From: an uncultured Pseudomonadota bacterium
GTDB taxonomy: Bacteria; Pseudomonadota; Gammaproteobacteria; Burkholderiales; SG8-39
NCBI GenBank assembly: GCA_963739205.1
Contig: CAVTZJ010000004.1
Span: forward strand, 322,369-386,368
Direction of reading: 5' to 3'
Length of the DNA stretch: 64,000 nt
The position numbers and the translations under genes were made by a program. How positions within the stretch are numbered: position 1 is the first letter of the stretch; each line of letters starts with the position of its first letter. A model generated the notes under the pieces. The model was not told where the DNA came from. It saw only the letters and a list, made by a program, of their open reading frames with translations, and made no database searches. Positions 23,262-35,302 of this stretch are shown piece after piece.

Positions 23262-24938
23262 CTAGGGCTTGTAGCCGGGGATGCGCGACTCGTCCACGAC
23301 GTCGATTTGCTCTTTGTCGAGGAACATCTCGGCGTAACGCAGATAGATCTTCTTGCGCACGAAAATGTCGAAAAGGTCCGGATCGATGTGGCCGTTCAGC
23401 TTGAAGCGACCCAGTATTTCGAGCGACTCGGAAAGCGTCTTGCCGCGCTTGTAGGGACGATCCTTGGCGGTGAGGGCTTCGAAGATGTCCGCGATGCCCA
23501 TGACGCGCGCCTGCACCGACATCTGTTCGCGCGTCAGGCCCTTTGGGTAGCCTTTACCGTCCATGCGCTCGTGGTGGCCACCGGCGTATTCGGGAACATT
23601 TTTCAGATGCTTCGGCCACGGCAGCGCCTCCAGCATCTTCACTGTCGCAACAATGTGGTGATTGATGATGTGGCGCTCATCCTCGTTCAGCGTGCCCGCG
23701 CGTATCGTGAGGTTCTTGAGTTCGTCGCCGGTGAGAAAGCTCGCTTCGTGTCCTGCACTGTCGGTCCAGCGGTACTGGGCGATCGACTTGACGCGTGCCA
23801 TGTCGGCCTCGCGCATCGACTCGCCACCGATATTGCAAGCTCGCAAGAACGCGCGATCGTCGTCCAGCTGGCGCACGCGGTCGCGATAACGGGCCTCCGC
23901 GGCCTCCATTTCCTCGCGCCCGGCCGTCCGCGCGGTCAGCTCATGACGCTTGCGTAGCAGCTCGATCTCCGCGTCTCGCTTGAGCACCTCGAAGCGAGTG
24001 TCCAGCAGGTGGATGCGATCGAAAATGGTCTCGAGCTTGGTGGCCTTGTCCACGACGTGGACCGGCGTGGTCACCTTCCCGCAGTCATGCAGCAAGCCCG
24101 CGATCTTGAGCTCATAGCGGTCCTTGTCGGTCATCGCAAAGTCGCGCAGCGCCCCTTCTGCTGTCTCGTGCGCCGCTTGCGCCAGCATCATGGTGAGCAA
24201 CGGCACGCGCTGGCAGTGTCCTCCGGTATACGGTGACTTCTCGTCGATCGCCGTGTTGATCATGTTGATGAACGATTCGAACAGCTCCTCGAGCTGATTG
24301 ATCAGCATCCGGTTGGTAAGCGCAATCGCCGCCTGCGAGGCAAGAGACTCGGCGAGCCGCTGGTCAGACGAGGAAAAAGCCGCGATTTCGCCGGTCGCGG
24401 GGTCGATCGCGTTGATAAGCTGAAGGACCCCGATGATCTCGTTCTCGTGGTTGCGCATCGACACGGTGAGGAAGGACTTCGAGCGGTAGCCGGTCTTGCT
24501 GTCGAAGGCCCTCGTGCCCGAGAAGTCAAAGCCCTCTGCGGTGTACGCGTCCGCGATGTTGACCGTCTCACCGGTAAGCGCGGCGTACGCGGCCACCATG
24601 TTGTAGTTAGGCTTACCGTCACGGTACAGCTGGATGGGGTAGAACGGCACCGCGTTGCCGGTCGTACCGCCCAAGTAGTACTTGAGCGAGCTCGTACGCA
24701 TGATTTCGAATCGCAACGTTTTATCGTCGCTCACGCGGTAAAGCGTCCCCCCGTCGGCTCTGGTAATCGACTTGGCCGCAGTAAGAATAGCCTCCAATAG
24801 ACGATTGATGTCGCGCTCTGCTGAAAGCGAAGCGCCGATGGCGTTCAGCCGCTCGAGTCGCTGGACGAGGTCGTCCTCGGGCGAGAGCTCGTGCCCGGAG
24901 AAATCGAGGATTTGCGTGGTATCGAGGCTGCCGCTCAT
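23262..24938 (-). CDS. GAF-domain HD-GYP phosphodiesterase (c-di-GMP type)
   Basis: N-terminal GAF-like region. HDCGK and GGHHERMDGKGYPKGL motifs are present. Confidence 0.85.
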   Translation of the reverse strand: MSGSLDTTQILDFSGHELSPEDDLVQRLERLNAIGASLSAERDINRLLEAILTAAKSITRADGGTLYRVSDDKTLRFEIMRTSSLKYYLGGTTGNAVPFYPIQLYRDGKPNYNMVAAYAALTGETVNIADAYTAEGFDFSGTRAFDSKTGYRSKSFLTVSMRNHENEIIGVLQLINAIDPATGEIAAFSSSDQRLAESLASQAAIALTNRMLINQLEELFESFINMINTAIDEKSPYTGGHCQRVPLLTMMLAQAAHETAEGALRDFAMTDKDRYELKIAGLLHDCGKVTTPVHVVDKATKLETIFDRIHLLDTRFEVLKRDAEIELLRKRHELTARTAGREEMEAAEARYRDRVRQLDDDRAFLRACNIGGESMREADMARVKSIAQYRWTDSAGHEASFLTGDELKNLTIRAGTLNEDERHIINHHIVATVKMLEALPWPKHLKNVPEYAGGHHERMDGKGYPKGLTREQMSVQARVMGIADIFEALTAKDRPYKRGKTLSESLEILGRFKLNGHIDPDLFDIFVRKKIYLRYAEMFLDKEQIDVVDESRIPGYKP

Positions 24939-24957
24939 CTGCGCGAGCGCTTCCCCG

Positions 24958-33350: not shown

Positions 33351-33357
33351 GTGCGCC

Positions 33358-35302
33358 TCACAACTCGATGTCCACGCCGCCCCCGGGGCGGGGCAGCTCG
33401 GGTCCGGCACCCGCGGCGGAGGCCGCCACGGCGGCGGCACGCAGCGACTGCGCGAACTCCTCGCCGGTCTGGAAGCGCTCGTCCGGGTTCTTGGCGAGCG
33501 CCCGCTGCAGGAAGGCCACGAGGCTCGATGGCACCTGCAGGTTGTACTGCAGGACGTCCGCGGGCGGCTCGTTTGAGATCTTGAACATGAGCTGCGCCAT
33601 CGACTCGCCCTCGAACGGCAGGCGGCCGCACAACAGCTGGTAGAAGCTGGTGGCGAGCGAGAACAGGTCGCTGCGACCTTCGATCCTCCTGCCGGCCAGC
33701 TGCTCGGGCGACATGTACGAAGGCGTGCCGAGCACCATGCCGGTCTTCGTCTTCGAGCTGTCCGTGAGCCGCGCGATGCCGAAGTCGGTCACCTTGAGGG
33801 TGTCGCTCTCGGGGTGATAACGAGGTTCGCGGGCTTGATGTCGCGGTGCACGACGCCTTGACGGTGCGCGTAGCCGAGCGCGTCCGCAACGCGCGCGATG
33901 ATCGAAACCACGCGTTCGATGGCAGCAGGTTCGCCGGCTTGGTGAACGGCACCAGGTCACCGCCCTTCAGCAGTTCCATGGCGATGTAGCACAGGTCGTG
34001 CTCTTCCCCTGCGTCATAGATGGGGACGATATTGGGATGCGACAGCCGGCCCGCGGTCTCTGCTTCGCGGAAGAAGCGATCCTTGACCTCGGCGAGCTCG
34101 TCGGGCTCGAACTCCTGCGCGAGCGCCATGGTCTTGATCGCGACCACGCGTCCGATCTTCGGGTCGCGCCCGAGGTACACGACCCCCATCGCGCCTTTGC
34201 CGAGCTCCTTCTCCACCTGGTAACGGCCGAGCATCGGCTTTTCCACCGTGCCGCCTGCGCCGAGAATGCTGGTGTTCGTCGCCCCGCCCCCGCCGCCGAG
34301 CATGACCGTCTCGGAGAGCTGCTTGGCGCGCGTCAGCCGCTGCTCGAGGTCGCGGTACTTCGGACTGAATCCGTGCATGTGGCGCAACACCGACTCGGCC
34401 TTGTTGTACTGGCACTTGCGCTCGAAGTCGAGCGCGAGGTTGTACAGGTTGTCGAGCAGCGCATCGGACATCGGCACCTGGCGGAACTTGTCCCATGCCA
34501 TGTCGAGGTTGCCTTGACCCTGGTAGGCGAGCCCGAGCATGCGGTTCGATTCCGCCGAGCTCTCGTCGGAGCGGAGCTTGGCCCGTTCCGTAACGATGAA
34601 GCGCTTGGTAACCAGCGCGAGGTGGCCGACCAGCAGCAGCGTGGCCGGGACAATCAGTTGCACCCATGTGCCACGCGCCACCATGAGCCCGAAGTGCGCC
34701 GCGATCAGGGCGAGGAGCAGCGTCGCCGTAATCGCCGCCGCGGGCCCTGCATTCAGCCGCGGCAGCAGCACGATGAGGTACACCGCGACCAGCAGGAACG
34801 CCAGTTTCTGGGCCACCCATGCCCACGGCGGCGAGACGAAGAAGTCCTCCTGCAGGATCGAGGACACCGCGTGCGCGAGCGCAAGCACCGGCGCCATCGC
34901 TGGCGCGATCGTCGTCACCGAAGTGCTGCCGACGCCGGCTGCCGTCGGGCCGATCAGCACGATCTTGTCGCGATACTTTTCCGCGGGGATCTTGCCGCTC
35001 AGGACGTCGTAGAACGAGTCGACCGTAAACGCCGGACGGCCGTCGCGGTCCTTGTGGAAATACGTGTACATGTGCATCGCCGAATCGGTGCCGATGTGGA
35101 GCCGGCCAAGGTTGGCGATGCTGGTGTCGTCGATCGCGATCACAGCGATGCGGTCGGAGGGCGTGCGCGAGGACGCCTGCACTCCCATGTCGTAGGCTTT
35201 GCGCTCGAGACTCTGCAACAGATCGCTGGAACTTGCGAACAGCATGAGCAACGCCACCGCCGCGCCGAGGAACCAGTCGGCCTTCCAGAATCTCGACTTC
35301 AT
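33358..35302 (-). pseudogene. CHASE2-like sensor Ser/Thr protein kinase; reading frame broken twice (true decay or sequencing error)
   Basis: ORF 33341..35302 carries the N-terminus through GKGAMGVVY, VAIKTM and [21 protein letters not shown] third frame carries [37 protein letters not shown] 33358..33960 carries [17 protein letters not shown]...GTPSYMSPEQ. Shifts lie at ~33921 (CC where CCC is expected) and ~33820 (TT where TTT is expected). The length of 1945 nt equals 3n+1, consistent with two 1-nt deletions. Confidence 0.8.

Follow-up and report, generated by a model that had tools for sequence, protein, structure and literature searches.

A GAF-fused PilB/GspE-type ATPase in a conserved betaproteobacterial cluster of predicted cyclic-nucleotide and phosphothreonine signalling genes

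To our knowledge, second messengers control type IV pilus motors either as cyclic di-GMP (c-di-GMP), through MshEN domains or the FimX-PilZ route, or as cyclic AMP (cAMP), through transcription (Vfr, SyCRP1). Here we describe a locus on a 64,000-nt stretch of DNA from an uncultured member of the Burkholderiales (assembly GCA_963739205.1, contig CAVTZJ010000004.1, positions 322,369 to 386,368; the whole stretch is called the window below), in which a PilB/GspE-type ATPase with a GAF domain fused in front lies among genes for a predicted adenylate cyclase, a putative phosphodiesterase, a GAF-HD-GYP protein and Ser/Thr phosphorylation proteins, beside two type IVa pilins. The most economical reading, which we hold with about even confidence, is that the locus represents a lineage-wide betaproteobacterial, cAMP-centred module around the PilB/GspE-like ATPase and the HD-GYP enzyme.

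Several described systems resemble parts of this locus. The MshE/PilB extension ATPases (V. cholerae MshE, M. xanthus PilB and C. perfringens PilB2) belong to the same superfamily and share its N1-N2-CTD layout, and in them the motor senses a second messenger through its own N-terminal module (PMC11656802), as we would predict for the window ATPase from its sequence. Unlike them, the window ATPase has degenerate c-di-GMP motifs, an added GAF domain of the cyclic nucleotide monophosphate (cNMP) type in front and a PilB score below the curated cut-off. In the FimX-PilZ-PilB system of Xanthomonas and Pseudomonas, a c-di-GMP-related protein is coupled to the N-terminal region of the extension ATPase (PMC8389850, PMC5595344); FimX is a degenerate GGDEF-EAL receptor, whereas the neighbour here is an active-looking HD-GYP hydrolase, and the locus is without a PilZ adaptor. 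The Pil-Chp/CyaB/cAMP-Vfr pathway of P. aeruginosa likewise ties a CyaB-related class III cyclase to type IV pili via cAMP (PMC11656802), but there the cyclase is chemosensory-driven and cAMP acts transcriptionally via Vfr, whereas here the cyclase has its own CHASE2 sensor and the proposed receptor is the GAF domain of the ATPase. Tlr0485 of Thermosynechococcus, a GAF-HD-GYP protein in which c-di-GMP hydrolysis is activated by cAMP (PMC10124867; 10.1101/2021.11.05.467447), and PmGH of Persephonella have the same architecture as the HD-GYP protein of the window; the latter differs from both in carrying an insertion of ~100 aa and in being encoded directly after the GAF-ATPase. A similar insertion has been described in Leptospira LIC_11189, another GAF-linked HD-GYP protein (PMC12943098).

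For the kinase, PP2C and FHA genes, the closest known logic, by analogy, would be the PpkA/PppA/Fha pathway of the type VI secretion system (T6SS), where the genes for PpkA, a membrane kinase that has a sensor in the periplasm, the PP2C phosphatase PppA and the FHA protein Fha1/TagH likewise lie together beside the ATPase or apparatus of a machine (PMC5995506). The FHA protein of the window matches the TagH model weakly (4e-11). In contrast to that Thr-phosphorylation pathway, the locus has no T6SS genes, the sensor is of the CHASE2 type, the FHA protein has a degenerate second domain, and loss of the kinase from loci that still have PP2C and FHA is frequent. GAF-fused PilB proteins go unmentioned in a 2024 review of PilB regulation (PMC11656802), and our literature searches, whose coverage was incomplete, found no description of a GAF-fused PilB/GspE ATPase or of such a gene combination, in line with the earlier note on this DNA (a reading of the sequence made without database searches), which had not recognised the combination either. 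The GAF-motor fusion and the conserved combination therefore appear to be undescribed; the individual components are each of a known kind.

Coordinates and sequence place ten co-directional reading frames on the minus strand from 35302 to 21909. Their Pfam domains, in gene order, are CHASE2 with kinase, PP2C, FHA, CHASE2 with class III cyclase, a metallo-β-lactamase (MBL) fold with a partial class II phosphodiesterase match, cNMP-binding with rhodanese, GAF with MshEN and the T2SSE ATPase, GAF with HD-GYP, and two type IVa pilins. The gene order, common strand and short spacers claimed in the earlier note were borne out by these data, with a small correction: the kinase stop at 33358 and the PP2C ATG at 33350 are 7 nt apart, where the earlier list implied 4. 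The other spacers are 16 nt (PP2C to FHA), 80 nt (FHA to cyclase), 10 nt (cyclase to phosphodiesterase), 4 nt (phosphodiesterase to CNB-rhodanese) and 19 nt (ATPase to HD-GYP). The 80-nt value follows from a cyclase start at GTG 31598, a choice over TTG 31682 that is backed by orthologues of 744 aa. Spacers of 4-19 nt indicate that the genes inside the sub-blocks may be co-transcribed or translationally coupled. The ATPase gene is instead preceded by a 174-nt gap (27325..27498, minus strand) that is locally AT-rich and probably contains an internal promoter; related loci also have a gap 5' of the ATPase gene. As a whole, the earlier observation of the block is partly confirmed and the interpretation placed on it partly supported.

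The ATPase (24958..27324, minus strand; 788 aa; Pfam GAF, MshEN and T2SSE) is arranged as a GAF domain, an MshEN-like N1 domain and a PilB/GspE-type hexameric ATPase, and its start was set at 27324 because its homologues are all 788 aa long. It belongs to the T2SSE superfamily, with PF00437 matching at 3.7e-113 over profile positions 4-368 of 370. Its Walker A, Walker B, His box and tetracysteine motifs lie in the segments GPTGSGKTT, DPDIIMVGEMRD, LTGHLVFATLHTN and CSKC...CDAC, which are invariant in 28 homologues, and the two zinc-binding CxxC pairs and the N1-N2-CTD architecture are kept. The best PDB matches of the core are type IV pilus (T4P) extension ATPases, namely M. xanthus PilB, T. 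thermophilus PilF and Geobacter PilB. The score against the NCBIfam PilB equivalog TIGR02538 is 485 bits (residues 201-667), short of 675.65, and that against the GspE equivalog TIGR02533 is 442 bits (residues 269-785), short of 630.25; because it lies below both curated cut-offs, we regard the ATPase as a distinct subfamily. A full-length AlphaFold2 model built with 28 homologues (83-94% identity) had a mean pLDDT of 43 and was unusable.

In front of this core, the GAF domain finds the GAF-A/B pair of Anabaena CyaB2 (1ykd) at 9e-25, followed by PDE10A, PmGH and PDE2A (2zmf at 4e-9, 1mc0 at 2e-7). Its segment EVDKRTGYRT aligns with GVDDSTGFRT of PDE2A, which carries the phosphate-contacting D..TG(Y/F)RT residues, and the segment F..EVDKRTGYRTKQ is invariant across the family. 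The GAF domain of the HD-GYP protein matches PDE5 (4e-15), PDE2A and CyaB2 and contains a KTGYRS segment, and the two GAF domains of the locus are homologous to one another (26% identity, E 1e-10). Similarity to cNMP-type GAF domains over the D-x-x-T-G-[YF]-R-T segment extends to both. The suggestion in the earlier note that the GAF domains are of the cyclic-nucleotide type is thus upheld as a prediction, with both domains placed in that subfamily by their CyaB2, PDE10A, PDE2A and PDE5 matches in the PDB and by the conserved D..TGYR(T/S).

The earlier description of the protein as a GAF-GspE/PilB-type ATPase was right about the GAF domain and the ATPase core but missed the N1/MshEN domain between them, which Pfam detects at 37.9 bits against 23.1. 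The match covers just the alpha/beta sub-domain downstream of the c-di-GMP motifs. We therefore examined the motifs themselves, using the tandem 24-residue pattern RLGxx(L/V/I)(L/V/I)xxG(L/V/I/F)(L/V/I)xxxxLxxxLxxQ in a strict and a relaxed version. None of the 83 family members (0/83) matches either version, and the relaxed pattern does match motif II of M. xanthus PilB as a positive control. The aligned positions in the window protein read TKYDYLIADAVLSAGEFDLASRQA and DVETVLVEEFQVKLSAIGQALSRF; RLG is replaced by TKY and DVE, the terminal Gln is lost, and the replacements are highly conserved. The ATPase was accordingly rejected as a canonical c-di-GMP-binding MshEN protein.

Downstream of the HD-GYP gene lie the two pilins, pilin 1 (22623..23093, minus strand; 156 aa; Pfam N_methyl and Pilin) and pilin 2 (21909..22394, minus strand; 161 aa from ATG 22394; Pfam N_methyl and Pilin on a longer open reading frame (ORF), and the NCBIfam prepilin domain). 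Pattern searches with TGGCAC/T-N5-TTGC found a sigma-54-type -24/-12 promoter for each: TGGCATGATGATTGC (23139..23153, minus strand), 45 nt upstream of pilin 1, and TGGCACGATGGTTGC (22459..22473, minus strand), ~65 nt upstream of pilin 2. The second is an exact consensus and the sole zero-mismatch sigma-54 match in the 64-kb window, and in 29 of 43 related loci the pattern is likewise found ahead of the pilin. This implies putative RpoN/PilR-type control, and the two genes are best described, as far as their promoters predict, as pilA-like genes under their own control that adjoin the signalling block. The block is closed after pilin 2 by an intrinsic-terminator-like hairpin with a 9-bp stem and T7 (21860..21881, minus strand), the single strong one that the terminator scan returned. 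The kinase remnant has a sigma-70-like site on its upstream side; the sigma-70 scan as a whole was no richer than chance. No CRP/Vfr-type site was found upstream of the ATPase gene in the window or in 80 related loci, and searches against Rfam, which covers riboswitches too, gave no match in the window, nor in the block at a relaxed threshold.

The points that weigh against the cAMP-centred, pilus-linked reading concern the motor, the chemistry and the kinase, and those on the motor are these. Owing to their own sigma-54 promoters, the pilins need not be co-transcribed with the block. No PilC/GspF platform, prepilin peptidase or PilMNOPQ genes occur in the window or the flanks examined, the ATPase is probably, from its sub-threshold scores, a paralogue and not the housekeeping pilus motor, and that it is the motor for the neighbouring pilins is unproven. 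In 22 of 50 loci no pilin falls within the flank. Two distant GAF-ATPases, described below, are orphans. Taken together, these observations could mean that the ATPase is not a pilus extension motor at all, and that it powers another fibre, a secretion or uptake process, or works as a nucleotide-regulated signalling ATPase, its adjacency to pilins reflecting regulation or history. We consider this unlikely: the best solved homologues of the ATPase are T4P extension ATPases, the PilB model outscores the GspE model, the full N1-N2-CTD layout and the zinc-binding CxxC pairs are retained, and in many loci and genera a pilin gene lies immediately 3' of the HD-GYP gene.

The cAMP-centred reading depends on the arrangement being more than a local accident. 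A scan of one genome per species for the ATPase gave at least 600 matches, of which the best 80, all from Betaproteobacteria, were used; the window proteins were mapped onto those loci, and counts were taken from 50 species-level loci with complete flanks. The carriers among the best 80 include uncultured Burkholderiales, Gallionella, Sideroxydans, Rhodocyclaceae, Sulfuricella, Nitrosomonas sp. Nm51, Noviherbaspirillum and Chitinimonas viridis, and soil and freshwater metagenomes contain thousands of close homologues of the ATPase. The gene most tightly linked to the ATPase is that of the phosphodiesterase (48 of the 50 loci), followed by HD-GYP (46), PP2C and FHA (42 each), the cyclase (40), the kinase (33), a pilin within the flank (28) and CNB-rhodanese (20). 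A seven-gene core in the same order and on the same strand is present at 31 of the 50 loci, and the same eight genes in the same order occur in L001, L003/L004, L005 and L087 (we cite single related loci by number where needed). Order and orientation are kept from 97% down to 66% ATPase identity, across Gallionellaceae, Rhodocyclaceae, Nitrosomonadaceae, Chitinimonas and soil Burkholderiales. The gene set is thus syntenic in dozens of species, and the check on co-occurrence proposed in the earlier note came out in its favour; a lack of synteny, which that note had named as grounds for refutation, is clearly contradicted. The arrangement is clearly non-random and beyond chance.

Conservation of this kind would also be seen if the block consisted of independent modules, namely a trio for Ser/Thr phosphorylation, another for cAMP and the pair of ATPase and HD-GYP, juxtaposed by shared regulation or drift and serving no common pathway. 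The module content does vary: at least nine loci have lost the kinase but retain PP2C and FHA, some are without the cyclase, and 20 of 50 carry CNB-rhodanese. The smallest unit to recur pairs the phosphodiesterase with the ATPase; HD-GYP usually comes next and a pilin often does, as in Nitrosomonadaceae loci, and minimal loci in Nitrosomonas consist of the first two genes alone or of these plus HD-GYP. The 174-nt gap also suggests a separate transcription unit. Set against this are the stability of module order and orientation over the identity range and families given above, the 4-19 nt spacers within the sub-blocks and a coherent domain logic, in which one class of ligand has an enzyme to make it, another to degrade it and three domains of receptor type, and we judge mere juxtaposition to be distinctly improbable.

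The GAF-N1 arrangement is common: an exhaustive profile search returned at least 273 cluster representatives at E<=1e-30, and beyond Betaproteobacteria such proteins reach Nitrospirota, Thermodesulfobacteriota and Desulfobacterales. The relatives in the two distant loci examined, L085 (Ca. Nitrobium versatile, Nitrospirota) and L086, are 30-35% identical in the N-terminal 370 aa, and their GAF-ATPases are the orphans mentioned above, without phosphodiesterase, HD-GYP or pilin neighbours. Because these distant orphans exist, the GAF-ATPase fusion appears to be older and broader than the betaproteobacterial cluster.

Returning to the cAMP-centred reading, its proposed source is the cyclase (29364..31598, minus strand; 744 aa), a predicted CHASE2-transmembrane class III (IIIb-type) adenylate cyclase with Pfam matches to CHASE2 (3.6e-57) and Guanylate_cyc (1.2e-19). 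The residues that define class IIIb, two metal-binding Asp, the Lys and Thr that select ATP as substrate, and the transition-state Asn and Arg, are all present and at least 90% conserved in 62 orthologues. They lie in the motifs FSDVRGFT, DKYIGDAIMA and AYTVMGDPVNLGSRLE, with the Lys in DKYIGD and the Thr in AYTVMGD. We took this motif assignment from established family knowledge, in which the position of the Thr is an Asp in class IIIa. The same residues of P. aeruginosa CyaB align with them, and the best PDB matches are adenylate cyclases, CyaB included (2.6e-31). On this alignment, the enzyme carries the Lys/Thr pair of adenylate and not of guanylate cyclases, so that the production of cAMP by the linked cyclase, as the earlier note had it, is well supported as a predicted class by the catalytic residues, the Lys/Thr pair and the homologues.

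The proposed degrader (28586..29353, minus strand; 255 aa) is an MBL-fold protein, a putative class II phosphodiesterase or Apyc1-like enzyme, with Pfam matches to Lactamase_B_2 and, in part, PDEase_II. The earlier note called it a class II cNMP phosphodiesterase. Its MBL fold and a PDEase_II (PF02112) score above the cut-off (53.2 bits against 23.7) speak for that name, and its THSHLDH motif, the HxHLDH signature, is conserved, with yeast PDE1 matching at 1e-4; the match, however, covers 60 of 340 profile positions (84-143), and the NCBIfam model for cyclic-nucleotide-degrading phosphodiesterases gives 40.9 bits against a cut-off of 400. Orthologues carry precomputed Anti-Pycsar_Apyc1 matches.

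The third enzyme is the GAF-HD-GYP phosphodiesterase (23262..24938, minus strand; 558 aa; Pfam GAF and HD_5/HD). Its LLHDCGK and GGHHERMDGKGYP motifs are those of HD-GYP enzymes, with the HD and HHERMDGKGYP residues conserved in 70 orthologues, and predict an active hydrolase. PmGH (4mcw) is the best PDB match at 2e-32, followed by V-cGAP3 (5z7c). The ~100-aa insertion lies in the HD-GYP domain (protein residues ~300-405), is largely helical as judged from sequence, gives no Pfam match and is kept in orthologues. Of the c-di-GMP turnover that the earlier note built into the circuit, the part that stands is thus the predicted catalytic competence of the enzyme; its link to the ATPase is left without a recognisable receptor, since the MshEN-type motifs of the ATPase are degenerate.

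The points on chemistry belong here. Neither a diguanylate cyclase nor a recognisable c-di-GMP receptor is encoded at the locus; the phosphodiesterase assignment leans on the partial PDEase_II match, and RNase Z models also match that protein weakly; the HD-GYP substrate could be 3'3'-cGAMP, because V-cGAP3 is the second-best PDB match; and ligand binding by the GAF and CNB domains is something we infer from homology and gene neighbourhood. It is conceivable, then, that the chemistry is not cAMP to c-di-GMP: the GAF domains might bind cGMP or a ligand other than a nucleotide, or only dimerise, the HD-GYP protein might cleave 3'3'-cGAMP or act as a scaffold, and the MBL protein might not be a cNMP phosphodiesterase. 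The cGMP-binding PDE5 and PDE2A are among the top matches of the HD-GYP GAF domain, the GAF domain of PmGH has no known ligand (10.1101/2021.11.05.467447), and the low PDEase_II coverage and NCBIfam score given above fit as well. We nevertheless think this group of possibilities quite unlikely, given that the linked cyclase has the adenylate-type Lys/Thr pair, that the strongest GAF match of the ATPase is to the cAMP-binding GAF domains of CyaB2, that the cAMP route has a direct precedent in Tlr0485 (PMC10124867) and that the phosphodiesterase is the gene most tightly linked to the ATPase.

Next to the phosphodiesterase is encoded a 360-aa protein (27499..28581, minus strand) in which a CNB-like domain is followed by a canonical CNB and then by a rhodanese domain (Pfam cNMP_binding and Rhodanese). 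The second CNB domain is canonical (Pfam 1.1e-20), with a conserved phosphate-binding cassette FGEE..RNAT, and the active-site Cys loop CQSGRRS of the rhodanese domain is conserved. The N-terminal 140 aa give no Pfam match even at E<=10, and hhalign support for a CNB domain there is weak (18.6%). An AlphaFold model built with 30 homologues has a pLDDT of 70-88 in this region, and Foldseek matches the model to the tandem-CNB regulatory domains of PKG and PKA over ~260 columns (E 1.6e-16, TM 0.28-0.38). Because the model aligns to tandem CNB-A/B modules, the label CNB-CNB-rhodanese given earlier may hold at the level of fold for the first, CNB-like domain, whose phosphate-binding cassette is divergent, and holds by Pfam for the other two domains. 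The earlier inclusion of a sulfurtransferase in the circuit was overstated, the gene being optional. Two further genes of the cyclic-nucleotide receptor type lie elsewhere in the window: a Crp-like regulator (39727-40338, plus strand), which has the oxalate genes on one side and tctA on the other, and a double-CNB protein of 350 aa (51539-52591, minus strand).

The first gene of the block, presented in the earlier note as an intact CHASE2-like Ser/Thr kinase, is degraded in this genome (33358..35302, minus strand) and is a pseudogene or at best a sensor-less remnant. The 653-aa ORF that had been read as the kinase (33341-35302) is a frame chimera, in which Pfam finds a partial CHASE2 and the first 90 kinase profile positions. 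Relative to the L001 and L005 orthologues, blastn shows that 627 nt are missing in frame (~209 codons of the CHASE2 core), with a junction at 35110/35111 that is flanked by two imperfectly similar 12-nt stretches. The kinase domain has uncompensated 1-nt deletions at ~33922 and ~33819 (blastn against L001 and L005), which put the HRD and DFG segments in frames other than that of the domain start; accordingly, tblastn places the intact L001 kinase (853 aa) in three separate reading frames of the window, and the Hanks-type signature of HRD and DFG in one uninterrupted frame is absent from the window. It is present in the kinases of L001, L003 and L005, which are intact, with all catalytic motifs and with HRDIKPAN and DFG in one frame.

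L005, a soil Burkholderiales metagenome-assembled genome (MAG), is the closest relative (91.5% nucleotide identity over 13 kb) and has an intact kinase of 857 aa. In comparison with it, the indels in the other nine genes are all locally compensated and the uncompensated ones are confined to the kinase. A generic assembly error behind all of the kinase lesions was ruled out by these compensated indels and by the 627-nt deletion, which cannot be a consensus error. Against the decay reading, the two 1-nt lesions may be assembly or consensus errors, because the formate-tetrahydrofolate ligase (FTHFS) gene of the window is also frameshifted. That gene (44352-46023, minus strand) is split by a +1 frameshift near 45770 into ORF 45310-46023 (profile positions 2-81) and ORF 44352-45752 (positions 90-556); the split site reads GGTCTCGGGCGATGCG where G-L-G-D-A is expected, and either the gene is another pseudogene or the assembly is wrong here.

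The kinase is the least stable part of the cluster elsewhere as well. Several loci lack it cleanly while keeping PP2C and FHA, and L018, L020, L024 and L029, among others, have independent remnants at the kinase position upstream of PP2C that consist of just the N-terminal 46-61 residues, just the C-terminal 100 residues or a gene with an internal deletion of residues ~68-669. The deletion in L029 begins near residue ~67, at about the same place as that in the window. On this comparison of sequences, the window kinase is one more stage of a recurrent loss, and dual CHASE2 input is predicted to be dispensable in many lineages. The proposal that paired CHASE2 sensors read one cue therefore fails for this genome, where the pair is not intact, and it fits poorly with the many cluster-keeping lineages in which the kinase is absent or a remnant. 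A shared CHASE2 ligand is also unproven because the CHASE2-transmembrane modules of the kinase and the cyclase are just 24.6% identical in the intact relatives. In the window genome, the decay affects the kinase arm, and the reading frames predict that the cAMP arm, the phosphatase and the FHA protein remain whole.

The PP2C-type Ser/Thr phosphatase (32526..33350, minus strand; 274 aa, as in its orthologues; Pfam PP2C_2/PP2C) reaches 243.6 bits on the NCBIfam Stp1/IreP equivalog, above the cut-off of 230. The FHA protein (31679..32509, minus strand) has a canonical FHA domain at residues 23-86, an Ala/Pro-rich linker and a degenerate FHA-like part at ~195-276. Pfam reports one FHA domain, the N-terminal one (3e-22), in which the residues for binding phosphothreonine (Gly-Arg, Ser-x-x-His and Asn-Gly) are found as TIGRKPHND..SGEHA..STNGT. 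The C-terminal half, itself conserved, is FHA-like by hhalign against the N-terminal profile (91.6%, E 8e-7) and, taken in isolation, gives a sub-threshold Pfam FHA score (17.9 bits against a cut-off of 20.7), but the Arg and the Ser-x-x-His of the phosphothreonine site are absent from it, and GR, SxxH and NG are conserved in the N-terminal domain only. Of the double-FHA protein of the earlier note, the first domain is therefore canonical, and the second is FHA-like by profile-profile comparison and lacks the phosphothreonine-binding residues.

Upstream of the block are oxalate/formate genes (formyltransferase, frc-type CoA-transferase and oxc-type ThDP enzyme), the Crp-like regulator and TctABC. 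The order oxc, frc, formyltransferase (35618-39652, minus strand) lies directly upstream of the kinase in the window and in L001, L003, L005, L087 and many other relatives, so the chromosomal position of the cluster is conserved in this lineage. Downstream of the pilins is a glycosyltransferase-type run (14224-21811, minus strand) that contains a GT2 gene at 20663-21811, a 757-aa YfhO-like membrane protein, a 690-aa TMEM260/PMT_2-like GT-C enzyme and a 648-aa GT87-like protein, with methyltransferase genes beside it at 12427-14312. A comparable glycosyltransferase set follows the pilin in L003/L004, and the run is a candidate pilin O-glycosylation island. Elsewhere, the window has a sulfur-oxidation set (3791-7864, plus strand) comprising SoxY, a small ORF, a SoxA-type cytochrome, a cytochrome c and a SoxB-like 5'-nucleotidase/metallophosphatase. 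A formate dehydrogenase-like complex of the NAD-linked kind is encoded at 46065-50710, and the two, taken with the oxalate/formate genes, point to a lithoheterotrophic soil betaproteobacterium.

In the cAMP-centred module that we propose, a periplasmic cue would lead the cyclase to raise cAMP, and the phosphodiesterase would reset the level. Binding of cAMP by the GAF domain of the ATPase would gate the motor directly, the GAF domain standing in the regulatory place of the degenerate c-di-GMP-binding MshEN motifs. In parallel, cAMP may activate the GAF-HD-GYP enzyme, as in Tlr0485, and so lower c-di-GMP or a related dinucleotide, and the two effects would jointly shift the cell to pilus-based behaviour. 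The kinase, PP2C and FHA proteins would provide a second, post-translational input, with the N-terminal FHA domain docking on a phosphothreonine target in the manner of PpkA/PppA/Fha1; this arm and the CNB-CNB-rhodanese gene would be accessory. More boldly, and only as a tentative suggestion that we think could well be wrong, GAF-fused PilB/GspE ATPases may be a class of motors, for fibres or secretion, that has gone unrecognised and that cAMP gates directly, with the GAF domain functionally replacing the MshEN motifs, and in Betaproteobacteria they may be the hub of a three-signal circuit (a periplasmic cue turned into cAMP, phosphothreonine read by FHA, and c-di-GMP removal by HD-GYP) that sets pilus deployment post-translationally.

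If this is true, cAMP would switch the motor directly and post-translationally, through a receptor domain of the cAMP type that the ATPase itself carries, and the pairing with the HD-GYP enzyme would be a built-in point of cross-talk between cAMP and c-di-GMP. The staged and repeated loss of the kinase, with PP2C and FHA persisting, offers a natural experiment on dispensable inputs. The carriers are little-studied bacteria of environmental importance, among them iron oxidisers (Gallionella, Sideroxydans), ammonia oxidisers (Nitrosomonas), Rhodocyclaceae and soil Burkholderiales. Attachment to surfaces and biofilm behaviour matter in these groups, and because cultured carriers exist among them, the hypothesis is testable.

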